Shown piece after piece: positions 7,835 through 32,127 of a stretch of DNA of 64,000 nucleotides. Under the pieces are notes generated by a model. The model ran no database searches, was not told where the DNA came from, and was given only the letters and a program-made list of their open reading frames with translations. This DNA is from Bacteroidales bacterium (GTDB lineage: Bacteria > Bacteroidota > Bacteroidia > Bacteroidales > Muribaculaceae). Within the stretch, counting starts at the first letter, position 1; each line of letters opens with the position of its first letter. The DNA is taken from contig JAWXTT010000001.1 of the NCBI GenBank assembly GCA_044433325.1, positions 1,470 through 65,469 on the forward strand, in the 5' to 3' direction. Made by a program: the position numbers and the translations under genes.

Positions 7835-8926
7835 ATGAAGATAGTTGTTACAGGTACACGCGGCATCCCCAATATTATGGGGGGAGTAGAAACTCACTGT
7901 GAGGAGCTATTCCCTCGCATTGCTAGTTCAGGTAAATACGATGTAACAGTTATTAGACGTACTAGTTATGCAAATGATAATCTTACATCTTATAAAGGTG
8001 TAAATCTTGTTGATATCAATACTCCAAGACAAAAATCATTTGAGGCAATTATACATACCTTTCGCGGTGTAGTCCGTGCTAAAAGATTAAAAGCTGATAT
8101 CGTGCATCTTCACGCCGTTGGTCCATCTATTGTAACTCCCATCGCTCGTTTATTAGGATTAAAGGTGGTATTTACACATCATGGGTTTGATTATGACAGA
8201 GATAAATGGGGTTTTGTAGCTAAATCAATAATAAAACTAGGGGAACGTTTCAGCGTTAAGTATGCTACTGAAGTAATAGTTATATCTGATGTTATCAAGA
8301 GTCATATTGAGAAGAAATATAACCGTACTGATAGCACATTAATATATAATGGTGGCTCTGATACCAATAAATGTGAAACTCCTGAATATTTTAAGGAGCT
8401 AGGTATTGAAAAGGGTAAATATATATTAGCTATGTGCCGCTTTGTTCCTGAGAAAAATTTACACCATTTGGTCGAGGCTTTTAGTCGCTTAAATCGCACT
8501 GATTGTAAATTAGTAATTGCAGGTGATTCAGACTTTGAGGATGAATACTCTACCAATCTAAAACAGTTAGCTAAAGATAATGGTGCAATATTAACAGGAT
8601 TCGTTCGTGGTGATAAACGTGATTCGCTACTTACCAATGCACGCTGTTTTGTACTTCCATCCTCACATGAGGGGTTGCCAATAGCTCTTTTGGAGGCTAT
8701 GAATTATGATTTACCTGTTATCGTAAGTGATATCCCTGCTAATTTAGAGGTGGGTTTAGAGCAATCTGTTTACTTTCAAATGGGAAATATTGATGAGCTT
8801 ACTAAAAAATTAGATATTGAGCTAAATCGAGATTTCAAAAACATCAAATATGATATGAGCAAATACAATTGGGATACAATTGCAGCACAAACAATGAATG
8901 TTTATTCAAAAATATTGAAAAAATAA
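7835..8926 (+). CDS. Glycosyltransferase family 4 (DUF1972-type N-terminus)
   Basis: N-terminus MKIVVTGTRGIPNIMGGVETHCEEL is typical of DUF1972 GTs. C-terminal part has CRFVPEKNLHHLVEAF and SSHEGLPIALLEAMNYDLPVIVSD. Confidence 0.8.
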   Translation: MKIVVTGTRGIPNIMGGVETHCEELFPRIASSGKYDVTVIRRTSYANDNLTSYKGVNLVDINTPRQKSFEAIIHTFRGVVRAKRLKADIVHLHAVGPSIVTPIARLLGLKVVFTHHGFDYDRDKWGFVAKSIIKLGERFSVKYATEVIVISDVIKSHIEKKYNRTDSTLIYNGGSDTNKCETPEYFKELGIEKGKYILAMCRFVPEKNLHHLVEAFSRLNRTDCKLVIAGDSDFEDEYSTNLKQLAKDNGAILTGFVRGDKRDSLLTNARCFVLPSSHEGLPIALLEAMNYDLPVIVSDIPANLEVGLEQSVYFQMGNIDELTKKLDIELNRDFKNIKYDMSKYNWDTIAAQTMNVYSKILKK

Positions 8927-15556: not shown

Positions 15557-15608
15557 ACACCCTTTGAAAGTTTAGAATACACTCTAAACTTTTAAATAAT
15601 CGCCTAAA

Positions 15609-15675
15609 GTTTTGGTTGTACTCTAAACTTCCACTCAAATTATGAAAAGTTTAGAGTACAACCAAAACATTTTTT
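15609..15675 (+). terminator. Intrinsic terminator after trpA (very long stem)
   Basis: A perfect 22-bp stem (15609-15630 pairs with 15647-15668), a 16-nt loop, then A and T6 at 15670-15675. Confidence 0.75.
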
Positions 15676-16078: not shown

Positions 16079-17281
16079 ATGACAAGTTTAAAGGTGAAAT
16101 TTAGGCCATCTACAATAGAAGGGAAAGAGGGAATCATATACTATCAAATTATTCATAACAGAGTGATAAGACAACTTAGAACTACTTATAAAATTTTCTC
16201 AGAAGAGTGGGACGATCTCTTATCACAGGTTGTTTTATCAATATATCGAGAGGATAGAACTTCACATATCTTAACCATTAAAGAGAGTATCAAAATGGAT
16301 CTAAAAAGATTGTCTAAAATAATAGAATTATTGAATAATGCAGGTACATATACTTGTGAGGATGTTATTTCTGCATTTGAGATGTCAATAAAAGGAGAAA
16401 TGCTCTTTAATTATATGCAGAAAATGGTAAACCGATTGATACAACTTCGCAAATATAGGACATCAGAAACATATAAAACTACTCTTAATAGTTTTATTCG
16501 GTTTAGAAAAGGGGAAAATATTATGATTACAGATATTTCCTCAGATTTAATAATGGATTATGAAGCCTATCTAAAAGGAGAAGGATTAACTATGAACACA
16601 GTCTCATTCTATATGCGGATACTTAGAGCCGTATATAATCGAGCCGCGGAGGACGATTTAGTTGAACAAAAATTCCCTTTTAAAAAGGTATATACAGGGG
16701 TGGATAAGACTATTAAACGAGCGCTTCCTCTTAAAGATATAAAGCGGATTAAAGAATTAGATTTATCACTTGCACCAGAATTAATATTTGCACGTGACAT
16801 GTTTCTATTTAGTTTCTATACACGTGGCATGTCATTTGTTGATATGGCATATCTTCAAAAAAAGGACTTAGTAAATGGAGTTATAACATATCGTAGGCGG
16901 AAAACTGGACAACTTCTACATATCAAATGGGAATGTTGTATGCAAAAAATTTTAAATCTTTATCCTCCATTAGAAACCAAATACTTATTGCCAATAATCC
17001 GAGATAAGGATAAAAATGACCGAGCACAATATATAAACGCACTAAACAAGGTTAATAATAAACTAAAAAAGATTGGAGAAATGATAGGACTTACAATGCC
17101 ATTAACCCAATATGTTGCACGACATTCTTGGGCATCAGTTGCTAAGAGCAAACACATACCTATCGCTGTAATTTCAGAAGGGATGGGACACGATTCAGAG
17201 ACAACTACTCAAATATACTTAGCTTCACTTGACACATCAATTGTTGACAAAGCTAATAATTTAATCCTCAAGTCGCTCTAA
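16079..17281 (+). CDS. Tyrosine site-specific recombinase (Bacteroides-type integrase with N-terminal Arm DNA-binding domain)
   Basis: N-terminus KVKFRPSTIEGKEGIIYYQIIHNR is typical of Bacteroidetes integrases. The C-terminal catalytic region has ARHSWAS and GHDSETTTQIYL (nucleophile Tyr). Confidence 0.85.
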   Translation: MTSLKVKFRPSTIEGKEGIIYYQIIHNRVIRQLRTTYKIFSEEWDDLLSQVVLSIYREDRTSHILTIKESIKMDLKRLSKIIELLNNAGTYTCEDVISAFEMSIKGEMLFNYMQKMVNRLIQLRKYRTSETYKTTLNSFIRFRKGENIMITDISSDLIMDYEAYLKGEGLTMNTVSFYMRILRAVYNRAAEDDLVEQKFPFKKVYTGVDKTIKRALPLKDIKRIKELDLSLAPELIFARDMFLFSFYTRGMSFVDMAYLQKKDLVNGVITYRRRKTGQLLHIKWECCMQKILNLYPPLETKYLLPIIRDKDKNDRAQYINALNKVNNKLKKIGEMIGLTMPLTQYVARHSWASVAKSKHIPIAVISEGMGHDSETTTQIYLASLDTSIVDKANNLILKSL

Positions 17282-17536: not shown

Positions 17537-18670
17537 ATGATACAAAAACCAAAGACAACACGAATTATAGCATTGATGCTAACATATTCTTGTAATCTAA
17601 ACTGTGTGTATTGTTTTGAAAAGCACAAATCAAATGATCCTTCGAAACGTATGACATTTGAAATTGCCAGAGAAATAATAGAAAAAGAGTTCTCGGCATT
17701 TCAAGAATCAGGAGATAAAGGGTCACTAAAAGTTGACTTCTTCGGAGGTGAACCACTTCTTAATTTTGGACTTATTAAAAGACTGGCAGAATGGATTTGG
17801 GAACAAGATTTTAAAATAAACTATGTACTATCAGTAACGACAAACGGCTCATTACTCAATGACAACATGAAAGAATGGTTCACTGAACATAAAGAACATT
17901 TTAGATTAATACTGTCAGTAGATGGAAATGAGCATATGCAAATGAACAATAGAGGGTGTAGCCAAGAAGCTCTTCCTATTGATTTCGTAAGACAAACTTG
18001 GCCAGACCTATATCTTAAGATGACAATGGGACGTGATTCCTTACCTACTTTTGCGGATGGTTTAATATACCTTTGTGAAAAGGGTTATAATGTATCTGGA
18101 AGTATTGCTATTGGTGAAAAATGGACACATGATGACGCTATGATATATAAGGAGCAACTTGAAAAAATAGCTGATTATTATCTATCACATCCAAATGTCA
18201 CACCAACTCACCTTTTTAACAGAATCTGGGGTGAGATGCTAAATCCTGTATATGAAACTGAGTTACCTCCAAAAAATTGTGGGACAGGGACTACAATGGC
18301 TGCATACGATGTTGATGGATATCCATATCCTTGCCACTTATTTCTTCCAATCGTACACGGTAAAGAGATTAGAGAAGACCTGAAAAAAATTGATTTTTTT
18401 GATAAGGAAAGGATGATTGATGAAGAATGTAGAAAATGTGGACTATTAAAAATATGTAGAACCTGCTATGGATATAACTACATTGAGAGGGGTGATGTGA
18501 ACAAGAGAGATAAATGCTTATGCGAAATGTTACTTGTAGAGGCAATTGTAATCAGCGCATTCCAAATTAATTACCTAATGCAAAGAAAAGATAGCTTGGA
18601 TTCAGAACAGTTGTTGGCACTTAAAGCAGCTATTCGCTGTTATGAGACATACAAAGATTTTAAATTCTAA
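17537..18670 (+). CDS. Radical SAM / SPASM-domain peptide maturase
   Basis: CxxxCxxC at residues 19-26 (YSCNLNCVYCFEK). The C-terminus has Cx12Gx4C (CGTGTTMAAYDVDGYPYPC), then CRKCGLLKICRTC and a later CLC, which is the SPASM auxiliary-cluster pattern. Immediately upstream of three small Cys-rich ORFs. Confidence 0.85.
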   Translation: MIQKPKTTRIIALMLTYSCNLNCVYCFEKHKSNDPSKRMTFEIAREIIEKEFSAFQESGDKGSLKVDFFGGEPLLNFGLIKRLAEWIWEQDFKINYVLSVTTNGSLLNDNMKEWFTEHKEHFRLILSVDGNEHMQMNNRGCSQEALPIDFVRQTWPDLYLKMTMGRDSLPTFADGLIYLCEKGYNVSGSIAIGEKWTHDDAMIYKEQLEKIADYYLSHPNVTPTHLFNRIWGEMLNPVYETELPPKNCGTGTTMAAYDVDGYPYPCHLFLPIVHGKEIREDLKKIDFFDKERMIDEECRKCGLLKICRTCYGYNYIERGDVNKRDKCLCEMLLVEAIVISAFQINYLMQRKDSLDSEQLLALKAAIRCYETYKDFKF

Positions 18671-18705: not shown

Positions 18706-18849
18706 ATGAAATTAGAAAATTCATTACTTGAGCAAGCGAACGAGTTGCTAAATGTTAATCAAGAGAACATCTCAAAGACTGAGACTGAAACAGTTTCTGT
18801 AAGTTGCTCTGGATGTGGAGCAGGATGTTCTGGTATAGTCGGAGACTAG
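18706..18849 (+). CDS. RiPP precursor peptide 1 (47 aa): MKLENSLLEQANELLNVNQENISKTETETVSVSCSGCGAGCSGIVGD
   Basis: ATG at 18706, TAG at 18847-18849. Not in the ORF track because it is under 60 aa. First of three tandem paralogs with a helical leader-like N-terminus and an invariant Cys/Gly/Ser core. Confidence 0.8.
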   Translation: MKLENSLLEQANELLNVNQENISKTETETVSVSCSGCGAGCSGIVGD

Positions 18850-18875
18850 TTACTAACATTAAATTGACAACAATT

Positions 18876-19022
18876 ATGAAATTGGAAAATTCATTGCTTG
18901 AACAAGCTAATGATTTGCTTGATGCAAATCAAGAGAGTATTGCTAAAACAGAGATTCCAAGTAGCATTAGTTGGAGTTGCTCTGGGTGCGGAGCTGGTTG
19001 CTCTGGAATTGTGGGAGATTAA
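18876..19022 (+). CDS. RiPP precursor peptide 2 (48 aa): MKLENSLLEQANDLLDANQESIAKTEIPSSISWSCSGCGAGCSGIVGD
   Basis: This is the in-frame ATG at codon 25 of the listed 18804..19022 ORF. The core is identical in amino acids to copy 1 despite 9 synonymous codon changes. Confidence 0.8.
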   Translation: MKLENSLLEQANDLLDANQESIAKTEIPSSISWSCSGCGAGCSGIVGD

Positions 19023-19061: not shown

Positions 19062-19205
19062 ATGAAACTTGAAAATTCATTACTTCAGCAGGCTACAGAA
19101 CTGCTAAATGCGAATCAAGAAAACATTTCAAAAACACTTACAGAAACAGTTTCAGTAAGTTGTTCTGGATGTGGAGCAGGATGCTCTGGTATAATCGGAG
19201 ACTAA
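19062..19205 (+). CDS. RiPP precursor peptide 3 (47 aa): MKLENSLLQQATELLNANQENISKTLTETVSVSCSGCGAGCSGIIGD
   Basis: ATG at 19062, TAA at 19203-19205. Not in the ORF track. The core differs from copy 1 only by V to I. Confidence 0.8.
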   Translation: MKLENSLLQQATELLNANQENISKTLTETVSVSCSGCGAGCSGIIGD

Positions 19206-19222: not shown

Positions 19223-19288
19223 GTGAGTCCTCTAACCTTTGAATGTTACTACAATCAAAGTAGGGGACTCGCTTTATAATACTTTTTT
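19223..19288 (+). terminator. Imperfect hairpin plus U-rich tract between the precursor genes and ycaO (possible partial terminator or processing site)
   Basis: 19223-19242 pairs with 19255-19272 (18 pairs including 2 G-U, two 1-nt bulges, 12-nt loop). It is followed by TTTATAATACTTTTTT, which runs into the ATG at 19289. Confidence 0.4.
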
Positions 19289-21097
19289 ATGAAACCTTAT
19301 AAATCTAAATCTCCTCTTGAAACTATAAATAATATTAGAGGGATATTATCAGATATCGGTATTTTTACAACCGAAAATCACATATCATATAGCGATCTTT
19401 TTTGCTCTTGTCGAGTTATTATTGATGACAATATTCAGGGACTTGACATTGGAACAAATGGAAAAGGTATGAATACACAATATGCTTTAGCTAGTGCATA
19501 TGGTGAGATGATGGAACGACTTCAGAATAGAATGTTAGGTTTTGCTGTGATGAAGTTTACAACATCTAGCGTTTTGAAAGATAATCCAAATTTAGAACCT
19601 CTTTATAATATGCTTTCAGCTGAGGGTCTCGTTGGTGATTTCAGGTATTATCCAGACGAGAAGGAGTATTCAGTCTCAAAATCAGAGCTATTAAAACAAG
19701 TTGAAAAATTCTTACCCAATATTTATGGTGTAGATAATGAATCTATACTAAAAAGTAATAAGTATAAATTAATTGAAGCTCCATTTTTCAATGTAAATTC
19801 ACAAAAAGTGGAAAATGTACCTTTATTCTTATTTAGACTAGCAGCAAGTTCTACAGGACTTTGTGCTGGGAATACACCTCAAGAGGCTATACTGCAAGGC
19901 TTGAATGAAATATTTGAAAGATATGTTCTCCAAAGATTATATGTAGAAAAAGTAACACCTCCTACAATTCCCGCAACATATTTTAAAGGAACAAATATAG
20001 TAGCACGACTTGAAAAATTACGACTAACTAAGAACGTTTATTATGAAATAAAAGATTGTTCTCTTGATGGGAAATACCCTGTTATTGGATTACTCCTAAT
20101 TGACAGATCGAATAATACATATGCCTTTAGACTTGGGGCTGACGCTAGTCCTATCATTGCACTTGAAAGGTGCTATACCGAGGCTTTTCAAGGAGTTAAA
20201 GATATCAAGAACCATTTTAGACCAATTAACTTTAATGATTCTTTCGATATTAAACTTGAACACGACAATAATGTTGTAAATGGATCGGGAAAATTCCCTA
20301 ATGAACTATTTCTAAATAAACCATCATATGATTTTAAAGGTTTTGTCTTTAGTGGAAAAGAGTCTGATGAAGCTGAATTAAAATACTATATAAAACATAT
20401 AGAAAATTTAGGATACACTACGTATGTCCGAGATAATTCATTCTTAAACTTCCCTGCATATACTATATTTATACCTGGTCTTTCAGACATATCGGGAGAA
20501 TTGTTAGATTTCTACCAACATTTAGAAGATGCTAATTGCACTTATTCTGCGTTAAAACCTGCATATAATATAAAAAGCCTTAATGATGACGAATTAGTGA
20601 ATTATGCAGCAACTATTGAGAATAATAGTTCTAACAATATATCTCTATTCCCTTATTATATAGGACTACACAATAACATCAATAAGCATCTACTATTGAT
20701 GGGGATCTATTTCAAAACTGGGAATATTCACAAAGCATATAAAAACATGTCCATCTTTTTGACTCATAATGAAAGAACTGGCATATCACAATCAAATTAT
20801 TACTATGCAATTAGAGATTATCTATATTGGAAAAGCAAAGATAAACATGCTAATACTATCACGAGTATTTTATCCAGATTCTATGGTGAGAAAATAGCAG
20901 ATGAAGTAACAACAGATTTAGCAGATCCATCTAAAATATTAGATAATTTTAAGTTCCCTCAGTGTTTTGATTGTCAGAATTGCCCAGCTAGATCAGAGTG
21001 TAAATTCATTGAAATGGTACGAATGGAAAACCGTATCCAAAAAATATTTAAAAGTAATTTGAAAGATCAAATTAATCTAGAAGAGATATTTAAATAG
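19289..21097 (+). CDS. YcaO-domain protein, stand-alone E. coli-YcaO-like architecture (602 aa)
   Basis: N-terminal region ...DIGTNGKGMNTQYALASAYGEMMERLQNR matches the YcaO ATP/Mg-binding signature (compare E. coli NGKGATKKAALASALGEYFERL). It has a long helical TPR-like C-terminal half, and the C-terminus is ...LEEIFK with no PxPxP motif. Confidence 0.8.
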   Translation: MKPYKSKSPLETINNIRGILSDIGIFTTENHISYSDLFCSCRVIIDDNIQGLDIGTNGKGMNTQYALASAYGEMMERLQNRMLGFAVMKFTTSSVLKDNPNLEPLYNMLSAEGLVGDFRYYPDEKEYSVSKSELLKQVEKFLPNIYGVDNESILKSNKYKLIEAPFFNVNSQKVENVPLFLFRLAASSTGLCAGNTPQEAILQGLNEIFERYVLQRLYVEKVTPPTIPATYFKGTNIVARLEKLRLTKNVYYEIKDCSLDGKYPVIGLLLIDRSNNTYAFRLGADASPIIALERCYTEAFQGVKDIKNHFRPINFNDSFDIKLEHDNNVVNGSGKFPNELFLNKPSYDFKGFVFSGKESDEAELKYYIKHIENLGYTTYVRDNSFLNFPAYTIFIPGLSDISGELLDFYQHLEDANCTYSALKPAYNIKSLNDDELVNYAATIENNSSNNISLFPYYIGLHNNINKHLLLMGIYFKTGNIHKAYKNMSIFLTHNERTGISQSNYYYAIRDYLYWKSKDKHANTITSILSRFYGEKIADEVTTDLADPSKILDNFKFPQCFDCQNCPARSECKFIEMVRMENRIQKIFKSNLKDQINLEEIFK

Positions 21098-21099
21098 TA

Positions 21100-21822
21100 A
21101 TGAAAACAAATTACCATACACACACAAAGCGGTGCAAACATGCTTTTGGAGAGGATGAGGAATACGTAAAAAGTGCTATAAAGGGAGGATATAGCATATT
21201 GGGGTTTGCTGATCATACCCCATGGCCATATTTAAAGAAAAATAGTTCAAGTATTAGAATGGAGACAAATCAGCTACCTGAATATGTTTCATCGATAATA
21301 TTTCTAAAAGAACGATTTGAGAATCAGATTGATATTAAAATCGGTTTAGAATGCGAATTTATTGAGAGATATACAACTTGGTTATCAGAGGTAAAGGAGC
21401 AATACAAATTAGACTATCTTCTTTTTGGCAACCACTATCCGTTTGGGGAGAGAGGCCCTCTTTACACATCAAAAGACCATAGGCTATATACGCACAGAGC
21501 CATAAAGGCTATGCAAACAGGAATATATGACTGTATAGCACATCCAGAGATATTGTATAGAGGGTCAGAAATAAGCTCTGTAGATAAAGAGTATTTTAGA
21601 GAGCTATCTCGTGCTGCAAAATATTTGAATATTATTATGGAGTATAACACCTGTTATAAATTCAAGCGAGATCTCTGGGAGATTGTCGCACAAGAGGATT
21701 GTAAAGTGATTATTGGGTTAGATGCACACAAGCCTGAGACTCTTGAAGATGATTCAATATACACAATGGCATTAGCAAATATGAAATCTGTCGGTATTGT
21801 ACCTATAACAAATTTGAAGTAG
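21100..21822 (+). CDS. PHP-domain metal-dependent phosphoesterase (HisJ/histidinol-phosphatase family)
   Basis: N-terminal MKTNYHTHTKRCKHA (HxH metal motif), GFADHTP and GLDAHKP. Confidence 0.7.
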   Translation: MKTNYHTHTKRCKHAFGEDEEYVKSAIKGGYSILGFADHTPWPYLKKNSSSIRMETNQLPEYVSSIIFLKERFENQIDIKIGLECEFIERYTTWLSEVKEQYKLDYLLFGNHYPFGERGPLYTSKDHRLYTHRAIKAMQTGIYDCIAHPEILYRGSEISSVDKEYFRELSRAAKYLNIIMEYNTCYKFKRDLWEIVAQEDCKVIIGLDAHKPETLEDDSIYTMALANMKSVGIVPITNLK

Positions 21823-21827: not shown

Positions 21828-22565
21828 ATGGGAAATAAAGGGTATAAAAAAGAGATGTGCAATATTTATAGCAAAGAGGGTCAATTCAACTTTGAACAAA
21901 ATCTATTTGAAAATTTTACAAAATATAGCAATGAACATAATATAGTTTACCGAACACATACAGATTTGGGCTGTGGTCTAGGTTATTTTACAGAGTTGAT
22001 GAATAGTCGTGGCATTACTAGTCGTGGTATTGATTTGTCAGAGACTATGATTGAAATGGCAAAATCTAAATTTAGCAACAATTATTATGTTGGAGATATT
22101 TGCAACGTCAAATTACCTAATCCTGTTGATTTAATAACTTGTAATCACAATACAATAAATCATTTGAATACACTTGATAAATGGAAGGAATTTATGCTTA
22201 ATGCCTATTACAATTTATCACAAGAGGGGTATCTGTTGTTTGACTTCAATACGATAGATTATATAGAGACAGTAAGCCACTTTAGTTATAGTCAGTTAAA
22301 CCCCAATCTAGACATCATAAAAATTGTGATACCCAATAATAACTATCAATTACAATTTAGATATATTTTCTATAGTAAGCAGAAAAATGAGTATTACACT
22401 AAAAATATAGAGTCGATTTTAATAACATGTTTTAAAACAACAGATATATTTAAACTAATTACCGAATGTGGATTTAATATACATACCACATGGGATAATC
22501 AATTTAATGAATGCCAGATAGATACAAAAACAATTAGATTTTATATTTTGGCAAATAAACGATAA
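21828..22565 (+). CDS. Class I SAM-dependent methyltransferase
   Basis: Motif I DLGCGLGYFTELM, followed by GIDLSETMIEMA. 245 aa. Confidence 0.75.
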   Translation: MGNKGYKKEMCNIYSKEGQFNFEQNLFENFTKYSNEHNIVYRTHTDLGCGLGYFTELMNSRGITSRGIDLSETMIEMAKSKFSNNYYVGDICNVKLPNPVDLITCNHNTINHLNTLDKWKEFMLNAYYNLSQEGYLLFDFNTIDYIETVSHFSYSQLNPNLDIIKIVIPNNNYQLQFRYIFYSKQKNEYYTKNIESILITCFKTTDIFKLITECGFNIHTTWDNQFNECQIDTKTIRFYILANKR

Positions 22566-22668: not shown

Positions 22669-23541
22669 ATGAAAAACTACAAATTTAATTGGGGAATTAT
22701 CCCCAAAAACAAAGAAGATTTATCGATACTTGTTATAGGCAATAGCTTTTCTTATCAGGTTTTCGGTTTTTGGAATTCGGATATTTTTGTACCCGGAGGA
22801 ATGATTGAGAACTCTACTCATAAGGGTATATATCAGGATTATATTGCTGTTGGTGATCAAACCTATGATAGATGGCTGTCTGACATAGAGAATAAAACAA
22901 CTAATTATTATAATTTAAAAGATAAACTCAATGAGCGACACTGGGACATAATTTGTATGTTGAATACATCTGCTAATTGGGACCCACAACATAACTACCC
23001 ACTGATAGAAATGTTTGCGCAATGGATAAGAGATAATAATAGTAATAAAGATGTTGCCTTTTTTATTTATGCTTCGCCTTCAAGACCTGGAGCTTGTCCC
23101 AAAAATATATACTGTGATAGCACAAAAGAGTTTGAGTTAATAAATGAGGGGTTCCGTACTCTCTCAACAACATATAATATCCCAGAATCAAGAATAATTC
23201 CGGGATCTACTGCTATGCAATATTTACGAAAAACATATCCACAACCAGACGATAAAGAGCTAACAATAGACTATCTACATCCCCAATTCGGATTACCTAT
23301 TTTAGCGACAGGTATAACAAGCTTTATGACAATTATAGGACAAGTGTTCGATAATATTGATTTTGACTGTATCTCTAAAAATATAGTTAGTAACTACAAA
23401 GATAATGATGAATGCAATTTATCTAAGTCAACCCCAAAAGATTTACTTCTTGAAAGCACATTTTTCATAAATATTGATGATAGTAATAGAGCTTATGCTA
23501 TCTCTGCTGCAAAATATGCATTAGCAAATAAATTTAAGTAG
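22669..23541 (+). CDS. SGNH/GDSL-like hydrolase-fold protein (DUF4886-like), tentative
   Basis: The N-terminal block ILVIGNSFSYQ resembles the DUF4886/SGNH block I. Otherwise uncharacterised. Confidence 0.4.
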   Translation: MKNYKFNWGIIPKNKEDLSILVIGNSFSYQVFGFWNSDIFVPGGMIENSTHKGIYQDYIAVGDQTYDRWLSDIENKTTNYYNLKDKLNERHWDIICMLNTSANWDPQHNYPLIEMFAQWIRDNNSNKDVAFFIYASPSRPGACPKNIYCDSTKEFELINEGFRTLSTTYNIPESRIIPGSTAMQYLRKTYPQPDDKELTIDYLHPQFGLPILATGITSFMTIIGQVFDNIDFDCISKNIVSNYKDNDECNLSKSTPKDLLLESTFFINIDDSNRAYAISAAKYALANKFK

Positions 23542-23930: not shown

Positions 23931-25310
23931 CTATTTACTTTTTAGATATTCATTAATGCTCTTGGCTGCATCACGACCAGATGCGATAGCACGTACCACA
24001 AGCGAAGCTCCCGAGGTTGCATCACCTGCAACGAATACACCTTCAACAGATGTATGATTCTTAGCATCACGCTTAATGTTTTTACGTTCATCTAGCTCTA
24101 GTGATAATGTTTCAATGATACCTGCTTGCTCAGGATGTACAAAACCCATTGCCAACAATACCATATCAGCTTTTAATATTTCGGTTGATTCATCAATCAT
24201 TGATTTAACCTCGACCTCACAAACTTCACCTTGTGCATTACCAATAAATTTATTAGTACCCAATGACCAACGTCTTTCGCATCCCTCTTTATGAGAGCTA
24301 GATGTTTTTAGAATCATTGGATAGTTAGGCCATGGTGTAGCAGGATTAGTTCCTACTGGAGGCTTAGGCATAATCTCGATTTGAGTAACCGATGCTGCAC
24401 CTTGACGAATTGATGTACCAACACAGTCCGAGCCTGTATCACCACCACCAATTACCAATACATGCTTACCCTTAGCAGATAACGCATCACTCTCATCCAC
24501 AACCCAACGAGCTGCAATAGCTCTATTTTGGTTTTTCAAGAATTCAAGTGCGAAGTAAACACCCTTCAATTCACGACCCTCAGCCATTAAATTTCTAGGA
24601 GTACCTGATCCTATTGTTATACAGACTGCATCAAATTCCTTAACAATATCAGCAATATTTTCAGCTACATTACTATTACATTTGAACTCAACACCCTGCT
24701 GAGCCATAATATCCATACGTCTATCAATAACCTTTTTAGACAGTTTGAAATCTGGAATACCGAAACGTAACAGACCACCAGGTTGTTCATCACGTTCAAA
24801 TAGTGTTACACTATGACCAGCCATACTTAACTGATTAGCACAAGCTAACCCAGCAGGACCAGAACCGATTACAGCTACCTTTTTACCAGTTGATTCAGCA
24901 ATTACAGGTTTAACATAACCCATTGCGAATGCTTTCTCAATAATTGATTTTTCATTCTCACGTATAGTGATAGGCTCATCATACTGATTAAGTACACACC
25001 CCATTTCACACAATGCAGGACAAACCCTACCTGTAAATTCTGGGAAATCATCAGTTTTCTGAAGATTCTCATACGCCTTACGCCATTCACCTTTATATAC
25101 TAGGTCTTGCCACTCTGATTGGTGATTGCCCAATGGACAACTCCAATGACAGAAAGGAACACCACAATCCATACATCTTGATGCTTGAAGAACTCTATCC
25201 TCCTCACCTAGTGTTTGCTCCACTTCACCGAAGTCTAACACTCTCTCCTCAACTGGTCTATAACCAGCTACTTTTCTCTTTATATCTATAAATCCTCGTT
25301 TATTTCCCAT
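23931..25310 (-). CDS. gltD: Glutamate synthase (NADPH) small subunit
   Basis: N-terminal Fe-S Cys motifs (CMDCGVPFC, CPLGN) and FAD/NAD folds VAVIGSGPAGLACA and VLVIGGGDTGSDC. Confidence 0.93.
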   Translation of the reverse strand: MGNKRGFIDIKRKVAGYRPVEERVLDFGEVEQTLGEEDRVLQASRCMDCGVPFCHWSCPLGNHQSEWQDLVYKGEWRKAYENLQKTDDFPEFTGRVCPALCEMGCVLNQYDEPITIRENEKSIIEKAFAMGYVKPVIAESTGKKVAVIGSGPAGLACANQLSMAGHSVTLFERDEQPGGLLRFGIPDFKLSKKVIDRRMDIMAQQGVEFKCNSNVAENIADIVKEFDAVCITIGSGTPRNLMAEGRELKGVYFALEFLKNQNRAIAARWVVDESDALSAKGKHVLVIGGGDTGSDCVGTSIRQGAASVTQIEIMPKPPVGTNPATPWPNYPMILKTSSSHKEGCERRWSLGTNKFIGNAQGEVCEVEVKSMIDESTEILKADMVLLAMGFVHPEQAGIIETLSLELDERKNIKRDAKNHTSVEGVFVAGDATSGASLVVRAIASGRDAAKSINEYLKSK

Positions 25311-25321
25311 TGTCTCCTGAA

Positions 25322-28300
25322 TTAATAGTCGCGTTCAACTTGTGAAATCTTATCTTGTAAAGCCTTCATCTGCTCCTCTTGAAGCACACGTTTGTACTCA
25401 ATAGGCGTTACTTTGATAAAATTCTTTAATAATAACTCATCATCTAATACTTGTGCAGCAATCTTACTACCAGTATGTTTGTAATGTTTGCTAATTAGCG
25501 ATAGTAATTCAGCCTTATCAGCACTATTATCAACAAGTGATAATTCCACCATCTCCATATTACATTTAGCATCAAAGTTGCCATCCTTATTCCAGACATA
25601 AGCAACACCACCACTCATACCAGCACCGAAGTTACGACCAGTATAACCTAGTACAACCACACGACCACCAGTCATATACTCGCAACAGTGTTCACCTGCA
25701 CCCTCAACAACGGCATGCACACCACTGTTACGTACGCAGAAACGTTCACCTACGCGACCATTAATATAAACCTCGCCCGATGTAGCACCATATAACAATG
25801 TATTACCTGCAATCACATTTACATGTGGAGTAAACTCAGCTTTCTTATCAGGAACTACGGTAATTTTACCACCTGAAAGACCTTTTCCTAAATAGTCATT
25901 AGCCTCGCCATAAAGTTTGAATGAAACACCTTTTGAAAGGAAGGCACCGAAACTTTGACCAGCCGAACCTGTAAAGTTAACCTTGATACTATCCTCAGGT
26001 AATCCATCTTCACCATATTTAGCAACCACTTCACCTGCTAGGGTTGAACCCACAGCACGGTCAGTATTAGTGATATTTAAATCAAGTTCAACCTTTTCAC
26101 CAGTCTCAATAGCTGAGCTAGTAGCATCAGCTAATGCAGCTTTAATCTCAGTCACAGGATCTTTTATCTGAGTAGTTTCACGTCTTAGTGGCTCTTTACC
26201 AACAAATTCAGCTCCATGAACTATTTTTGAGAAATCAATCTTATCTATTTTACTATTACCAGTAGCCTCACGCTCTTGAATCAAGTCAACACGACCAATT
26301 ACATCATCCAATTTGGTGAATCCCATCTCAGCAAGTGCTTCACGCACATCCTCAGCTAAGAAATTAAAGAAATTCACTAGGTAATCAGCATCACCTCTAA
26401 AACGTTCACGCAATTTAGCATCCTGAGTAGCAACACCCACAGGGCAAGTATTTAAGTGACATTTACGCATCATCACACAACCAAGAACAATCAAAGCACT
26501 AGTTGCAAATCCAAACTCCTCAGCACCCAGTAATGCCTCAACTATTATATCATGACCAGTCTTAACCTGACCATCCACTTGAAGTGCGACACGTGAGCGC
26601 AATTTATTCAATACCAATGTTTGTTGAACCTCAGATAAACCTATTTCCGAAGAAACACCTGTATGGCGGATAGAACTCATAGGACTAGCACCAGTACCAC
26701 CCTCGCAACCACTAATGATGATAGCATCAGCCTTAGCTTTAGCCACACCTGCCGCGATAGTACCAATACCACTTTCAGATACTAACTTAACACTAATTCT
26801 AGCTTTAGGGTTAACATTCTTCAAGTCATAAATTAATTGAGCCAAATCCTCGATAGAGTAAATATCGTGGTGTGGAGGTGGAGAAATCAATGAGATACCA
26901 GGTATTGAGTGACGTGTTTTAGCTATCACCTCATCAACTTTAAAACCAGGTAACTGACCACCCTCACCAGGTTTAGCACCTTGAGCAATCTTAATCTGAA
27001 TTTCATCAGCATTAACCAGATAGTTAGCAGTAACACCGAAACGACCCGATGCAATCTGCTTAATAGCACTACGGGCTGAAGTTCCATCTTCACGAGGAGT
27101 GAAACGACGTACATCTTCACCACCTTCACCTGTGTTACTCTTACCACCTAAGCGATTCATAGCCACAGCTAGAGCCTCATGAGCCTCCTTACTAATTGAG
27201 CCGAAAGACATAGCACCTGTAACGAAACGTTTAGTGATAGCCTCAACTGGTTCAACTAATGAAATATCTATTGGGTTACTCTTATAAGTCAATCTATCAC
27301 GTAGGAAGATTGGCTTATGATTATTAACAATCTCAGTATATTCTTTAAACATCTTATAGCTACCTAAGCGTGTAGCAATTTGAAGTTTAGATATTGTTTC
27401 AGGATTCCAAGCATGTTGTTCACCTGTTTTTCTATAAGCATATTGTCCTAAATCACCTAGCTCCTCATTCTTATAAGCGGCACAATGGAAACGATAGATA
27501 TCATTATAGATATCCTCCAAATCTGCGCCACCTATTGCTGATGAGATTCCAGCAAAGTATTTATCAATAAGCTTTTGTGATAAGCCAACCGCTTCAAATA
27601 ATTGAGCACCACGGTAAGAACCGATAGTTGAGATACCCATCTTAGAGATAACCTTCAACAATCCTTTACCCACAGCCTTAATATATTTCTTTTCAGCAGT
27701 AGCATAATCAAGAGCTAATACTCGCTCCTTAACCATATCATTGATAACTGCAAAAGCCATATATGGATTAACAGCACTAGCACCATAACCTAATAGTAGT
27801 GCGAAATGCATAACCTCACGAGCCTCACCAGTTTCAACGATTAAGGCAGTTTGTACCCTCTTACGTTTTGAAATTAAGTGATGATGAACAGCAGATACCG
27901 CCAATACTGATGGGACAGCAGCCATATCTTCACTAACACTACGGTCTGAAAGGATAATATAATTAAACGTTTCATCAACCGCATTTTCAGCCTCAGCACA
28001 TAAACGAGAAACAGCAGCTTCTAATCCAGCAGCACCATCAACCACAGGGAAAGTCATATCCAACGTTTTAGTTCTAAAACCTTTATAGTCGATATTCCTA
28101 AGAATATCCATATCACGATTAGTCAACACTGGTTGTTTGATATGAACCATCTTACATAGCTCCTCAGTTGGAGTTAATAGATTCTTATCAATAGCACCGA
28201 TATACCCCTCTAATGACATCACCAATTGTTCACGAATTGGGTCAATAGGTGGATTAGTTACCTGAGCAAATTGTTGACGGAAATAGTTAAATAGCAATTG

Positions 28301-29806
28301 TGGTTTCTCTGAAAATAGAGCAATAGGAGTATCATTACCCATAGAACCGATAGCCTCAGCACCCGATTCAACCATAGGAATCATAATCTTATCAATCTCC
28401 TCCTGATAGTAACCAAAGGCAGTTCTAAGCGATTCATAATTCTCAACCTCGATTGATACTTTACGACCAGATGTAATCTCCTCAAGGTGGACACGGTTCT
28501 TTTTCAACCATTCACCATAAGGAAACTCTTCGGCTAACGCCTCCTTAATCTCGCCATCACGATATATAGTACCAGTCTTAGTATCAATTAAGATAATCTT
28601 ACCTGGTTGCAGACGACCCTTTTCAACGACACTTTCAGCATCTAATGGCAATACACCCGCTTCAGATGCAATAACCATCATACCATCCTTAGTAATAGTA
28701 TAACGTGTAGGACGTAAACCATTACGGTCTAACATACCACCTGCGTAACGACCATCTGAGAATAACAGTGCAGCTGGTCCATCCCAAGGCTCCATTAATA
28801 TACTATTATATTCATAGAATGCTTTCAGTTTACGTGAAATTGGGTTCTTCTCATTAAAACTTTGAGGCACTAACATAGCCAAAGCATGAGGAATAGACAT
28901 CCCAGACATCACAAAAAATTCTAGCACATTATCCAATGACGCACTATCACTCATATTTTTCTGAACGACAGGGTGAATCATACTTACATCACCTAATGAT
29001 GAGCCTGACTTCAACACTCCCTCGCGAGCAATACTCCACAATCTATTACCTCTAATGGTGTTAATCTCACCATTGTGACCTAACATTCTGAATGGTTGAG
29101 CCAATGGCCATGAAGGGAAAGTATTAGTACTGAAACGAGAGTGTACTAAAGCAATAGCACTAGTTAAAGATGGATTTTTAAGATCTACGAAATATTCGCG
29201 TAACTGATCCGAAGATAGCATACCCTTATAAATCATACTCTTTGACGAAAGACTTACGATGTAAGCGTCTTCGTTATCCTTCTCAACACGTTTACGTAAA
29301 CGATACAGGCGTATATCTAACGTCTGATCGCTATATCGATTCTCAGTTATGAAAATTTGTTTGATAGCTGGTTCAGCATCCAACGCTCCTTCTCCAAGCA
29401 TTGAATTATCCGTAGGGACATCACGTACCGTCAGTACCGTTAATCCCTCAGCTTCAGCAGATGATTTAATAGAATCCATGATTCTATCTTCAGCTGATTT
29501 ATCATTTTTGGGTATAAAGACTAAACCCGTACCATAGCTACCCTTTTCAGGGACAGCAATACCTTGTAGCAAAATAAATTCATGAGGAACTTGAATCATA
29601 ATACCAGCACCATCGCCCGTATTTTGATCAGCACCCTCTGCGCCACGGTGCATCATATTCTCCAAAACCTTCAATCCGTTATCAACAACGTCATGAGATT
29701 TCTTCCCGTGAATATTAAGGAGCAAACCCACTCCACATGCATCATGTTCATAGGCAGGATCATATAATCCCTGCTTATAATTCTTATTAAATATCTGACT
29801 TTTCAT
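25322..29806 (-). CDS. gltB: Glutamate synthase large subunit
   Basis: 1494 aa. Ntn amidotransferase start ...HDACGVG, an FMN/3Fe-4S central domain and the C-terminal GXGXG beta-helix domain. Confidence 0.96.
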   Translation of the reverse strand: MKSQIFNKNYKQGLYDPAYEHDACGVGLLLNIHGKKSHDVVDNGLKVLENMMHRGAEGADQNTGDGAGIMIQVPHEFILLQGIAVPEKGSYGTGLVFIPKNDKSAEDRIMDSIKSSAEAEGLTVLTVRDVPTDNSMLGEGALDAEPAIKQIFITENRYSDQTLDIRLYRLRKRVEKDNEDAYIVSLSSKSMIYKGMLSSDQLREYFVDLKNPSLTSAIALVHSRFSTNTFPSWPLAQPFRMLGHNGEINTIRGNRLWSIAREGVLKSGSSLGDVSMIHPVVQKNMSDSASLDNVLEFFVMSGMSIPHALAMLVPQSFNEKNPISRKLKAFYEYNSILMEPWDGPAALLFSDGRYAGGMLDRNGLRPTRYTITKDGMMVIASEAGVLPLDAESVVEKGRLQPGKIILIDTKTGTIYRDGEIKEALAEEFPYGEWLKKNRVHLEEITSGRKVSIEVENYESLRTAFGYYQEEIDKIMIPMVESGAEAIGSMGNDTPIALFSEKPQLLFNYFRQQFAQVTNPPIDPIREQLVMSLEGYIGAIDKNLLTPTEELCKMVHIKQPVLTNRDMDILRNIDYKGFRTKTLDMTFPVVDGAAGLEAAVSRLCAEAENAVDETFNYIILSDRSVSEDMAAVPSVLAVSAVHHHLISKRKRVQTALIVETGEAREVMHFALLLGYGASAVNPYMAFAVINDMVKERVLALDYATAEKKYIKAVGKGLLKVISKMGISTIGSYRGAQLFEAVGLSQKLIDKYFAGISSAIGGADLEDIYNDIYRFHCAAYKNEELGDLGQYAYRKTGEQHAWNPETISKLQIATRLGSYKMFKEYTEIVNNHKPIFLRDRLTYKSNPIDISLVEPVEAITKRFVTGAMSFGSISKEAHEALAVAMNRLGGKSNTGEGGEDVRRFTPREDGTSARSAIKQIASGRFGVTANYLVNADEIQIKIAQGAKPGEGGQLPGFKVDEVIAKTRHSIPGISLISPPPHHDIYSIEDLAQLIYDLKNVNPKARISVKLVSESGIGTIAAGVAKAKADAIIISGCEGGTGASPMSSIRHTGVSSEIGLSEVQQTLVLNKLRSRVALQVDGQVKTGHDIIVEALLGAEEFGFATSALIVLGCVMMRKCHLNTCPVGVATQDAKLRERFRGDADYLVNFFNFLAEDVREALAEMGFTKLDDVIGRVDLIQEREATGNSKIDKIDFSKIVHGAEFVGKEPLRRETTQIKDPVTEIKAALADATSSAIETGEKVELDLNITNTDRAVGSTLAGEVVAKYGEDGLPEDSIKVNFTGSAGQSFGAFLSKGVSFKLYGEANDYLGKGLSGGKITVVPDKKAEFTPHVNVIAGNTLLYGATSGEVYINGRVGERFCVRNSGVHAVVEGAGEHCCEYMTGGRVVVLGYTGRNFGAGMSGGVAYVWNKDGNFDAKCNMEMVELSLVDNSADKAELLSLISKHYKHTGSKIAAQVLDDELLLKNFIKVTPIEYKRVLQEEQMKALQDKISQVERDY

Positions 29807-29823
29807 ATCTGAATTGAGGATTT

Positions 29824-29865
29824 CTAAAAACTGATTTATCTATCATTAAGATGATAAACCAGTTT
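29824..29865 (-). terminator. Hairpin plus U-tract downstream of glnN, lying in the gltB 5' region
   Basis: Minus-strand RNA is AAAAACUGGUUUAUC-(12 nt)-GAUAAAUCAGUUUUU. The core is 10 bp with one G-U pair and ends in U5. It sits only 18 nt upstream of the gltB ATG. Confidence 0.5.
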
Positions 29866-29940
29866 TTATTCATCCATTTAAATTTAGTTAATCTAAGGAT
29901 CTGTACGTGTGTTTTACAAATCCCTTACACATTATATATC

Positions 29941-32127
29941 TTATCTAGTTAATAGCAATTCACGGTACTTAGGTAATGTCCACATACGGTCATCAACAAT
30001 AAGTTCCAATTTATCAATATGGTAACGGATACCATCCATTAATGGTACAATTACATCATGATAAGCGATTGCTTTTTCACGTTCAGTTTCAATAGCGTTA
30101 GCCTCTTTTCTTGCCTCAACCATCTCATTAGTTTTTGAGATTATATAATCTATGTGAGAAGCCATCTCCTTGATAATACGTTTATCTTGACGAGCCATTG
30201 ATTCATACTCCTCTTCCGAGAATAATTGTTTAATCTTAACTACATTATCCAATAGGATTGATTGGTAGCTAGATGCAACAGGGATAATATGATTCATAGC
30301 TAAGTCACCTAATACGCGAGATTCGATTTGGATTTTCTTAGTATAAGTTTCCAATTTCACTTCATGACGTGATTCAACCTCAGCGTGAGAAAGGATACCT
30401 GTTTTCTCAAATACCTCTAAAGTAGCAGCCTTAGTATAAGTATCAAAGATTAATGGAATACTAGTTTCGCAATCTAAGCCACGAACTTCAGCTTCAACTT
30501 TCCACTCATCACCATAACCATTACCATCAAAACAGATAGGTTTACAAGCAGCGATTGCTTTTTTAACCTCAGTAACGATAGCTTTCTCTTTAGTAGCACC
30601 CTCAGCAATTAATTTGTCAACAGCAGCTTTGAACTCAACTAATTGTTCAGTTACAGCAGCATTAAGTGTTAACATTGCATCAGCACAGTTAGCAGATGAA
30701 CCAACTGCACGGAACTCGAAACGGTTACCTGTAAATGCAAATGGAGATGTACGGTTACGGTCTGTATTATCAAGTAAAATCTCAGGAAGGTGAGCAACAC
30801 CCACTTCGATAGCTACTTTATCATCGAATGTGATAACGTCATCAGTATTTACTGACTCTAATTTAGCTAATACTTCGCTAATTTGTTTACCTAAGAAGAT
30901 TGAAACGATAGCAGGAGGAGCTTCATTAGCACCTAGACGGTGAGCATTAGTAGCAGAACTAATAGATGCTTTAAGTAGAGCGTTATGTTTGTAAACAGCC
31001 ATCATAGTATTCACAAAGAATGTGATGAACTGTAAGTTTTCCATACCATTCTTTCCTGGAGAGAATAGATTAATACCTGTATCGGTACCCATACTCCAGT
31101 TATTGTGTTTACCTGAACCATTTATACCTTTGAATGGTTTTTCATGAAGAAGTACGCGGAAGTTATGACGACGAGCAACCTTTTTCATTACTGACATCAA
31201 TAGGATATTGTGGTCATTAGCTAAGTTAATCTCTTCATAAACAGGAGCTAGCTCAAATTGGTTAGGAGCAACCTCGTTGTGACGAGTCTTAACAGGCATA
31301 CCTAGTTTTAGACATTCATTCTCTAAGTCTGTCATGAAAGATATAACACGACTAGGGATAGCACCAAAGTAGTGATCCTCTAATTGTTGATTCTTAGCAC
31401 TTTCGTGACCCATCAATGTACGACCTGTAGTTACAAGGTCAGGACGAGCAGCATAAAGAGCTTCATCAACTAAGAAATATTCTTGTTCCCAACCTAGGAA
31501 AGAAACAACTTTCTTAACATTTTCATCAAAATATTTACATACAGCAGTAGCCGCTTTATCTAAAGCATTAACTGAACGTAGTAGTGGAGTTTTGTAGTCT
31601 AAAGCCTCACCTGTATATGAGATAAAGATAGTAGGAATACATAATGTATCACCAACAACGAATGCAGGAGATGATGGATCCCAAGCTGAATAACCGCGAG
31701 CCTCAAATGTATTACGTAAACCACCATTAGGGAAAGATGAAGCATCTGGCTCTTGTTGAGCTAGAAGTTTACCTGAGAACTCCTCAATCACGCCACCTAA
31801 ACCATCTGGTTCAATAAATGCGTCATGTTTCTCAGCAGTACCACCTGTCAATGGTTGGAACCAGTGTGTATAGTGTGTAGCACCTAATTCAATAGCCCAT
31901 TGCTTAATACCAGTAGCTACGCCATCAGCAATAGCACGTGGTAATTGCTCGCCATTATCAATAGATGAAATCAACGCTTTATACGTAGATTTTGATAAAT
32001 AACGTTGCATTTTAGCACGATTAAATACATACTTGCCATACTCTTCAGCTGGTCTAACTTCTTTACTTACATCTACAGCCTTACGACCTAATGCTGCTTT
32101 TAATTGTTCAAATCTTAGTGAACTCAT
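29941..32127 (-). CDS. glnN: Glutamine synthetase type III
   Basis: 728 aa, the size and N-terminal pattern (…HYTHWFQPLTG…) characteristic of Bacteroides GSIII. Confidence 0.93.
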   Translation of the reverse strand: MSSLRFEQLKAALGRKAVDVSKEVRPAEEYGKYVFNRAKMQRYLSKSTYKALISSIDNGEQLPRAIADGVATGIKQWAIELGATHYTHWFQPLTGGTAEKHDAFIEPDGLGGVIEEFSGKLLAQQEPDASSFPNGGLRNTFEARGYSAWDPSSPAFVVGDTLCIPTIFISYTGEALDYKTPLLRSVNALDKAATAVCKYFDENVKKVVSFLGWEQEYFLVDEALYAARPDLVTTGRTLMGHESAKNQQLEDHYFGAIPSRVISFMTDLENECLKLGMPVKTRHNEVAPNQFELAPVYEEINLANDHNILLMSVMKKVARRHNFRVLLHEKPFKGINGSGKHNNWSMGTDTGINLFSPGKNGMENLQFITFFVNTMMAVYKHNALLKASISSATNAHRLGANEAPPAIVSIFLGKQISEVLAKLESVNTDDVITFDDKVAIEVGVAHLPEILLDNTDRNRTSPFAFTGNRFEFRAVGSSANCADAMLTLNAAVTEQLVEFKAAVDKLIAEGATKEKAIVTEVKKAIAACKPICFDGNGYGDEWKVEAEVRGLDCETSIPLIFDTYTKAATLEVFEKTGILSHAEVESRHEVKLETYTKKIQIESRVLGDLAMNHIIPVASSYQSILLDNVVKIKQLFSEEEYESMARQDKRIIKEMASHIDYIISKTNEMVEARKEANAIETEREKAIAYHDVIVPLMDGIRYHIDKLELIVDDRMWTLPKYRELLLTR

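Follow-up and report, generated by a model that had tools for sequence, protein, structure and literature searches.

A stand-alone YcaO of the E. coli type encoded beside a radical SAM protein and three-cysteine precursor peptides in a Muribaculaceae bacterium

A YcaO gene shaped like that of Escherichia coli (EcYcaO) was noticed in the genome of a Bacteroidales bacterium of the family Muribaculaceae (GenBank assembly GCA_044433325.1, contig JAWXTT010000001.1), in a stretch of 64,000 nucleotides (positions 1,470 to 65,469 of the forward strand) that is referred to below as the window. It follows a gene for a radical S-adenosylmethionine (rSAM) protein and three short cysteine-rich open reading frames (ORFs). 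The question raised by this locus is whether the enzyme is a housekeeping modifier that merely lies beside a peptide cluster or a member of the peptide pathway and, in the latter case, which chemistry it could perform. Sequence comparisons indicate that the window YcaO likely uses ATP, but no partner protein, to activate backbone amides and so tailors a ribosomal peptide together with the rSAM protein, and that the product of the cluster is most likely a modified peptide of a kind not yet described.

The protein belongs to the YcaO superfamily, since its ATP/Mg2+-binding domain matched PF02624 with 140.1 bits (E 1.4e-40, cut-off 25.7) and TIGR00702 with 110.9 bits (cut-off 75.65), and it is the only YcaO of its genome. 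The initial annotation, made from the letters of the sequence alone, had described it as the stand-alone E. coli type, and the searches bear this out. The best NCBIfam model was YcaO_for_S12 (NF040716), which covered residues 11–546 with 165.6 bits and remained below its cut-off of 700; the best solved structure was EcYcaO (PDB 4q84, E 2.2e-28). With hhalign, a profile of 116 homologs could be aligned at 24% identity to residues 4–548 of the 586 residues of EcYcaO (probability 99.95, E 1.7e-38). The match spans both the catalytic and the C-terminal helical domains and halts just before a cysteine motif in the tail. The helical, TPR-like character of the C-terminal half, also proposed at the outset, agrees with this alignment and with a weak match to PF18381 (YcaO_C), with E 0.0083 for the whole protein and E 0.0011 (19.4 bits against a cut-off of 26.1) for the C-terminal half alone. 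Residues 400–602 lie nearest to YcaO_C clusters in a protein atlas (0.92), and the similarity of this region to TPR-like models in the same atlas, with TM scores of at most 0.42, is to be taken as a lead only. In EcYcaO, the equivalent C-terminal region is described as a TPR domain of 150 residues by Rice et al. 2026 (PMC13063428).

The window YcaO contains GTNGKGMNTQYALASAYGEMMERLQN, and the motif GKG...ASAYGEMMERL noted initially is present. Among 174 aligned sequences, including EcYcaO, residues S69, E73, E76, E207, E210, R211, and E298 are identical in all 174, and N195 and R294 are kept in 170, with E. coli identical at both. These residues are equivalent to the EcYcaO positions (Ser/Glu/Glu, Asn, Glu/Glu/Arg, and Arg/Glu) that we take, after the EcYcaO structure paper, to bind ATP and Mg2+. 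Two cysteines are near-invariant within otherwise universal active-site motifs of YcaO proteins: Cys192 (motif STGLCAGNT), found in 164 of the 174 sequences and replaced by Ser in E. coli, and Cys295 (motif ALERCYTE), adjacent to the catalytic Arg294, found in 154 of the 174 and replaced by Thr in E. coli.

The stand-alone nature of the enzyme is likewise confirmed. Pfam and NCBIfam scans of 8 cluster proteins and 38 further window ORFs revealed no ThiF/E1 protein, no RRE/PqqD domain (RRE, recognition element of RiPPs, peptides made on the ribosome and modified after translation), no nitroreductase-type (flavin mononucleotide, FMN) dehydrogenase, no TfuA, and no peptidase-containing ATP-binding cassette transporter (PCAT), and TfuA (PF07812) was not matched anywhere in the 2.2-Mb assembly (completeness 96.8%). 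The absence of an E1/Ocin-ThiF partner, a dehydrogenase, and TfuA from the vicinity had been read correctly from the sequence, as had the end of the protein, ...KDQINLEEIFK, which lacks the C-terminal PxPxP. The architecture is of the E. coli type, and the gene has no E1/RRE, dehydrogenase, or TfuA gene beside it.

Nevertheless, the window YcaO is not an ortholog of EcYcaO. The initial annotation regarded assistance to RimO as the only known role of EcYcaO, a view that is now outdated: according to Rice et al. (Biochemistry 2026, PMC13063428), EcYcaO thioamidates Met82 of uL16 in vivo and in vitro without TfuA, the link to S12 and RimO rested on modification falling from 99% to 84%, and RimO needs no help in vitro. 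The same source gives a low pI (about 4.4), complementary to the basic uL16, as a mark of uL16-modifying YcaOs, and mentions a few non-acidic YcaOs that group with EcYcaO in a sequence network and occur in RiPP-like contexts. The pI of the window YcaO is 6.14 versus 4.38 for EcYcaO, and among 173 members of its clade the median is 5.69 and the minimum 4.79. Homologs of the window YcaO were found in none of 60 relatives, in 8 of 400 other genomes of the family (32–46% identity), and in 1 of 400 genomes of the order, while any match to NF040716 was present in 5 of 300 other genomes of the phylum, and a match above the cut-off in none of 301; these genome sets are samples and some of the assemblies are incomplete. 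Such rarity at all four levels argues for an accessory, horizontally moving gene rather than a housekeeping one, and it differs from the distribution of a housekeeping ortholog present in all relatives, which the initial annotation had set against its own view. The window YcaO thus appears to share a deep lineage with EcYcaO but to belong to a separate, sporadically distributed clade.

The most distinctive feature of this clade is found in the C-terminal tail. A homolog search with the window YcaO yielded 2250 proteins at E ≤0.001 among 7999 scored candidates, and each of the 120 best of these 2250 carries a C-x2-C-x2-C-x5-C motif about 40 residues from the C-terminus. In an alignment of 116 rows, which includes the window protein and omits the truncated P0034, P0046, P0062, and P0065 as well as P0001 (identical to the window protein), the four cysteines are invariant, level with the ATP/Mg2+ residues. 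The cluster FPQCFDCQNCPARSEC had been pointed out initially as an aside; in the sequence alignment the motif is absent from EcYcaO. The tail alone gave only non-significant Pfam matches (DDE_Tnp_1_6, E 0.018; Fe-hydrogenase Fe-S domain, E 0.31), and its structural neighbours in the atlas, Fe-S loops of the endonuclease III/MutY type and fragments of hydrogenases and ferredoxins, had TM scores of 0.38–0.44 and are leads only. ItfB, a YcaO of Bacteroides, is described as fused to an [Fe-S]-recognition domain and installs a backbone amidine from NH4Cl (PMC11002830 and PMC10352776). The motif is probably a metal site, and the spacing of three close cysteines and one further away, together with the wording of PMC11002830 on ItfB, favours an Fe-S cluster over zinc.

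A FastTree phylogeny of 174 rows combined the 116 alignment rows with full-length YcaOs from the fetched loci and had EcYcaO as its only outgroup; ORFs shorter than 500 aa and exact duplicates were dropped. Phylogenetic placement had been suggested initially as a check, and it puts the window YcaO in the four-Cys clade, apart from EcYcaO: the protein groups with P0002–P0004 (4 rows, support 100) inside a group of 102 rows, every member of which has the four-Cys motif, and the branch leading to E. coli measures 2.83 substitutions per site.

Immediately upstream of the YcaO gene lie three near-identical, cysteine-rich precursor genes in tandem, with spacings of 170 and 186 nt. In 9 close precursors detected by a word-based search, VSVSCSGCGAGCSGIVGD is unchanged and leader identity goes down to about 55%. 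A profile search of 1.84 billion representative proteins gave 14 hits, namely 13 short or N-terminally extended precursor-like peptides and one protein of 1950 aa; the core CxxCGxGCxG[IT]VG is common to the 13 peptides with the sole exception of P0153. The terminal Asp is not universal in the family, and the window precursors have no GG-type leader. Three core motifs of these peptides had no match in the literature searched or in the data set of PMC13063428, and the three-Cys precursor family is new in this sense.

The rSAM protein matched rSAM_PapB (NF047865) best among NCBIfam models, with 139.8 bits against a cut-off of 340, followed by the CXXX-repeat, nif11, and SCIFF maturases; the nearest models also include QhpD, and PapB, CXXX-repeat, SCIFF, and QhpD were all matched below their cut-offs. 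Its best PDB match was 5wgg, where residues 6–331 of the rSAM protein align to residues 94–437; since the alignment begins at residue 94, the N-terminal domain of about 90 residues (the RRE) of 5wgg is absent from the window protein. The enzyme may be PapB-like in its working, yet it is not classifiable as PapB, and because the terminal Asp is not universal in the precursors, a PapB-style Cys-X3-Asp link is not implied.

The association of this type of YcaO with rSAM enzymes is widespread. Pfam annotation of 124 ORFs from 14 homolog loci detected one to five rSAM genes beside the YcaO gene in 10 loci; the other four comprised a short contig, a locus with a PCAT and a GG leader, and two Firmicutes loci. 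A hidden Markov model (HMM) built from the Pfam rSAM hits was then applied with the criterion that the gene lies on the same strand within 5 kb of YcaO, and rSAM genes were detected in 36 of 44 large-clade loci (3 of the 8 misses have less than 150 nt of flank on one side) and in 1 of 13 basal Negativicutes/Clostridia loci. The same trio occurs in L063, the closest genomic relative, where identity is 65% for the rSAM protein, 44% for one precursor, and 45% for the YcaO. The conserved unit at the window locus is the PapB-like rSAM gene, the precursor genes, and the YcaO gene.

These data suggest the following mechanism. Because neither the YcaO nor the rSAM protein has an RRE, the YcaO itself would bind the precursor, probably via its helical C-terminal domain. 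With ATP and Mg2+ it would phosphorylate a backbone carbonyl, presumably within the core CxxCGxGCxG[IT]VG, and a nucleophile would then replace the carbonyl oxygen, with HS- yielding a thioamide and NH3 an amidine. Taking these two products together, a small exogenous nucleophile seems somewhat better than an even chance. It is favoured because both characterised enzymes tied to the EcYcaO group use one (thioamide for EcYcaO and amidine for ItfB), because PxPxP and a partner protein are missing, and because the nearest rSAM models, all matched below cut-off, are Cys-thioether formers, which would use the three core thiols. With an exogenous nucleophile, the PapB-like rSAM enzyme would turn the three Cys thiols into thioether cross-links.

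One could further hypothesise, although this is rather improbable, that the tail holds an Fe-S cluster which takes part in the chemistry together with Cys192 and Cys295, either by capturing sulfide and delivering it to the activated amide or by coupling the YcaO to the rSAM enzyme. In the former case, the means of forming thioamides without TfuA would be built into the enzyme, in analogy to the thiolation of tRNA that depends on [4Fe-4S] clusters; in the latter, the YcaO and an RRE-less rSAM enzyme would be joined physically or electronically into one machine acting on a new three-Cys peptide family.

Several observations weigh against the proposed role or weaken its support. A Gly or Ser precedes each Cys of the core CxxCGxGCxG, which is the classic substrate look of azoline-forming YcaOs and keeps thiazoline formation a serious rival, and one precursor weakly matched NF033401, a model of thiazolyl peptides, with 17.9 bits (cut-off 37.5, E 0.0028). 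No protease or exporter was found in the cluster by the Pfam/NCBIfam scans described above, so the cluster is perhaps incomplete, or its product perhaps stays inside the cell. The FastTree phylogeny was rooted on a single long outgroup branch and shows that the clade is separate from EcYcaO, but not the order of YcaO clades. Near-duplicate loci overstate the independence of the 36 rSAM-linked loci out of 44, and at the level of clusters at 90% identity the linkage is 32 of 41. Twelve of the 13 basal four-Cys loci have no nearby rSAM gene, which means that the motif by itself does not imply an rSAM partner. Finally, binding of the precursor by the YcaO is supported only slightly by complex prediction, which reached a score of 0.55 versus 0.00 for the best control, with a partner pLDDT (predicted local distance difference test) of at least 38 and at least 29% of contacts agreeing between runs, and reported no interface; of 157 solved complexes, 116 attained this mark, as did 2 of 215 mismatched pairs, but scores of 0.60 or below were obtained by only 18 of the 157 solved complexes and by both of these mismatches.

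The strongest competitor of an exogenous nucleophile is a stand-alone azoline cyclodehydratase, in which core Cys (and perhaps Ser) residues attack the preceding amides to give thiazolines or oxazolines while the rSAM enzyme performs other chemistry. Stand-alone azoline-forming YcaOs exist, such as that of bottromycin. Besides the Gly/Ser-Cys pattern of the core and the weak thiazolyl-peptide match, the intact set of ATP/Mg residues is compatible with such an enzyme. It is nonetheless the less probable reading, given a protein that lacks the PxPxP C-terminus, scores 42.1 bits with SagD (TIGR03604, cut-off 219.25), and matches TruD (4bs9) only at E 0.002; given the lack of an E1/RRE partner and a dehydrogenase in the cluster and window ORFs scanned; and given that in the nearest characterised lineage the nucleophile is exogenous S or N and that the best rSAM models, being Cys-thioether formers, imply competition for the same thiols.

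Two other explanations concern the role of the protein rather than its nucleophile. The YcaO could be mainly non-catalytic and serve as a scaffold that binds the leader or bears an Fe-S cluster, either presenting the peptide to an rSAM enzyme that has no RRE or supporting the clusters of that enzyme. The missing RRE in both enzymes, the invariant four-Cys tail, the rSAM linkage across the clade, and the weakly predicted binding of the precursor would all fit a scaffold. However, its characterised relative ItfB is catalytic, and the identity of seven ATP/Mg2+-site residues in 174/174 sequences and of two in 170/174 argues for retained catalysis, which makes a purely structural role very unlikely. 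Still harder to credit is a housekeeping modifier of the E. coli kind, performing uL16 thioamidation or helping RimO with S12 and merely adjacent to a peptide cluster. The family model and the solved structure that match best are both those of EcYcaO, and the assembly contains RimO-like fragments; against this stand the NF040716 score far short of its cut-off, the non-acidic pI, the absence of homologs from all 60 relatives and their rarity in the wider samples, the three precursor genes upstream, the nearest only 83 nt away, and the recurrence of the same trio in L063. A catalytic YcaO dedicated to the precursor peptides therefore remains the preferred reading.

The features of the cluster are listed in Table 1.

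Table 1. Genes of the YcaO cluster and features of the YcaO protein (positions in the window)
Feature	Position	Strand	Evidence
Tyrosine recombinase/integrase	16079–17281	+	Phage_int_SAM_5 (71.4 bits), Phage_integrase, Arm-DNA-bind_5 (Pfam)
Radical SAM/SPASM maturase, PapB-like	17537–18670	+	NCBIfam NF047865, PDB 5wgg
Precursor peptide 1, 47 aa, ...VSVSCSGCGAGCSGIVGD	18706–18849	+	ORF, family alignment
Precursor peptide 2, 48 aa, ...ISWSCSGCGAGCSGIVGD	18876–19022	+	ATG inside listed TTG ORF 18804–19022
Precursor peptide 3, 47 aa, ...VSVSCSGCGAGCSGIIGD	19062–19205	+	ORF, family alignment
YcaO (gene under study), 602 aa	19289–21097	+	Domain, model, structure, and profile matches
YcaO ATP/Mg2+-binding domain, aa 57–399	19457–20485	+	PF02624
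C-terminal helical domain, TPR-like/YcaO_C-like, aa 400–548	20486–20932	+	hhalign to EcYcaO, weak PF18381, atlas matches
CxxCxxCx5C motif, Cys559, 562, 565, 571, FPQCFDCQNCPARSEC	20963–21001	+	Homolog listing and alignment
PHP-domain (HisJ-like) phosphoesterase	21100–21822	+	PF02811 (51.8 bits); NF005596 (107.8 bits, cut-off 202)
Class I SAM methyltransferase	21828–22565	+	Methyltransf_11/25
DUF4886 protein, last gene before convergent gltD	22669–23541	+	PF16227 (34.3 bits)

All genes from the integrase to the DUF4886 gene lie on the same strand, in the order integrase, rSAM, three precursors, YcaO, PHP, methyltransferase, and DUF4886. The first precursor gene begins 35 nt after the rSAM gene, and the YcaO gene begins 83 nt after the last precursor gene. 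Gaps of 2 nt between the YcaO and PHP genes and of 5 nt between the PHP and methyltransferase genes argue for co-transcription of these three genes here. Conserved membership of the pathway is not supported for the PHP, methyltransferase, and DUF4886 genes, since no homologs of them were found in 57 loci of YcaO homologs, and none in L063; their membership of the pathway here is uncertain. For the PHP protein, no homolog above 51% identity was found among 5.8 billion proteins, whereas relatives of the YcaO reach 72–78%, so it is probably not part of the conserved pathway. The methyltransferase had a weak match to the daptide_MTase model (E 0.00099, 18.6 bits, cut-off 175).

The cluster occupies a low-GC island, with a GC content of 0.31–0.34 over 16–24 kb versus 0.37–0.40 in the flanks. 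The integrase forms its left edge, and the flanks are the trp operon and the convergent gltD/gltB genes. In a genome of the same genus, the trp operon is present and the island genes and gltD are missing downstream, which does not define the island borders. No tRNA gene and no convincing flanking direct repeat were found at the island. Between trpA and the integrase gene (15567–15672), a 27-nt internally palindromic repeat (AAAGTTTAGA...TCTAAACTTT) is present in three copies with a spacing of 39–40 nt; it could be an element similar to repetitive extragenic palindromic (REP) sequences or a part of the island attachment region. Scans for promoters and terminators were at chance level (54 found versus 48.2 expected, and 5 versus 3.0, respectively). 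Directly beside the island, on the minus strand (23931–38307), lies a nitrogen-assimilation block comprising gltD, gltB, a type III glutamine synthetase, asnA, an ammonium transporter, and P-II, followed by aminotransferases and then a diaminopimelate (DAP) epimerase gene. A second radical SAM/SPASM gene (6705–7790) is located within a glycosyltransferase/polysaccharide cluster (286–8926); peptide genes are absent from its vicinity, and it does not seem to be connected with the YcaO cluster. Matches to RimO/MiaB-type methylthiotransferases in the assembly are cut by contig ends (G000 contigs C179, C98, and C67; L075, L077, and L078), the best reaching 305.9 bits over model positions 1–290.

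RNA-library contigs match the YcaO gene exactly at 19240–19395 (156 nt), 19410–19552 (143 nt), and 20016–20322 (307 nt). These matches hint only weakly at transcription, because an RNA library can also contain DNA, and cluster stretches without RNA-contig cover in run X4 are uninformative on expression. The sequencing runs containing the window DNA are labelled as fish gut metagenome and all belong to one study, from which the RNA library also came; the assembly may derive from these runs.

The homolog loci display a variety of layouts. In the basal four-Cys loci without an rSAM gene within 5 kb (L008, L010, L012–L014, L016, L017, L019, L036, L041, L043, and L044), the YcaOs are assigned by record title to Sporomusa, Pelosinus, Propionispora, and others; they are non-acidic (pI 5.1–8.4) and mostly have Thr at the position of Cys295, as in E. 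coli, or Ser in two cases. A locus of the same family as the window (L068, G682:C9, 3174–14283) contains a YcaO gene followed directly by a methyltransferase gene unrelated to that of the window and, on the same strand, four or five rSAM genes and genes for a ThiF-family protein and a JAB-domain protein, with an integrase 60% identical to that of the window at the locus end. In L072 (G378:C8, 3232–9673), the first tail Cys of the YcaO is replaced (YCCC) and no rSAM gene is present; a PCAT exporter, an outer-membrane beta-barrel protein, and a GG-leader peptide are encoded there in a layout resembling part of the itf cluster. In loci from Clostridia metagenome-assembled genomes (L003, L004, L009, L011, and L025–L028), three rSAM genes and the gene of a Nif11-type precursor are followed by two tandem genes for full-length four-Cys YcaOs, while in L015, L034, and L035 the first YcaO of the tandem pair lacks the Cys motif.

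Stand-alone YcaOs of E. coli shape have long been enigmatic, and two of them now have assigned chemistries, thioamidation of uL16 and amidine formation in ItfA. The locus described here shows that a sister clade, large and mostly metagenomic, keeps four invariant tail cysteines and habitually has radical SAM maturases as neighbours. With three genes and a 14-residue core that hardly varies, it is a compact system well suited to the study of the role of the Cys site, of substrate recognition without an RRE, and of sulfur or nitrogen delivery without TfuA, the last being named as an open question for EcYcaO in PMC13063428.

Compared with known systems, the window YcaO resembles EcYcaO (4Q84) in its two-domain build, its ATP/Mg residues, and its independence of a partner protein or TfuA, and it differs in its low sequence identity, in the four-Cys tail that EcYcaO lacks, and in Cys192 and Cys295, where EcYcaO has Ser and Thr. 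The substrate of EcYcaO, a thioamidase of uL16 Met82, is moreover a folded ribosomal protein and no small ORF is reported near its gene in PMC13063428, whereas the window gene is accessory and linked to peptides. With the cyclodehydratases of thiazole/oxazole-modified microcins and linear azole-containing peptides (TOMM/LAP), cyanobactins, and thiopeptides (SagD and TruD/LynD types), it shares the YcaO domain and a Cys/Gly-rich core resembling their substrates, but not the PxPxP end, a fused or separate E1-like/RRE partner, or an FMN dehydrogenase. Replacement of a backbone oxygen by exogenous sulfur, one of the two favoured chemistries, would be common to the YcaO-TfuA thioamide systems (Gly thioamidation of McrA, thioamitides); unlike these, the window and its genome have no TfuA, and the methan_mark_1 model scored 33.5 against a cut-off of 365. 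In family and structure searches, the window rSAM protein matched the PapB/CteB-type thioether-forming rSAM/SPASM maturases best, and these also act on Cys-rich substrates, while the window protein stays below the PapB cut-off and lacks the N-terminal RRE of the 5wgg protein.

The closest parallel is the ItfB/ItfD pair, which reportedly was characterised acting on a small peptide by Clark and Seyedsayamdost (JACS, 2022). As in that pair, a Bacteroidales YcaO without an E1/RRE partner, dehydrogenase, or TfuA stands beside an rSAM/SPASM maturase and a short precursor, in the setting of a mobile element, with Tra genes at itf and an integrase in the window. According to PMC11002830 and PMC10352776, ItfD, the rSAM neighbour of ItfB, makes a Trp-Ile C-C link, whereas the window rSAM protein is PapB-like; the window core is Cys/Gly-rich, and a GG leader and a PCAT transporter are missing. 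An Fe-S-type domain is described for ItfB, and the window YcaO carries the CxxCxxCx5C motif, a putative metal site. P0045 (B. ovatus, 580 aa, 41% identity) was considered as ItfB and rejected, since the accessions do not match and the span of the ItfB gene implies about 619 aa. One of the queries in Supporting Data Set 3 of PMC13063428, which the main text cites for the few non-acidic, RiPP-context YcaOs grouping with EcYcaO, has the accession of ItfB, and the supplement lists a precursor, a PCAT, an rSAM protein, and an outer-membrane protein as its neighbours, beside conjugative-transposon genes. A YcaO of the E. coli type that is dedicated to a peptide modified by an rSAM enzyme thus represents a kind of system already known, so that the intriguing rSAM-YcaO pair acting on small peptides in the initial annotation holds as regards its dedication to the neighbouring rSAM and peptide genes, but is not the first of its kind. 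What is known already is the rSAM-coupled, EcYcaO-like RiPP YcaO; the novel parts of the window system are its Cys-rich precursor family and the unexplained, invariant Cys4 site.

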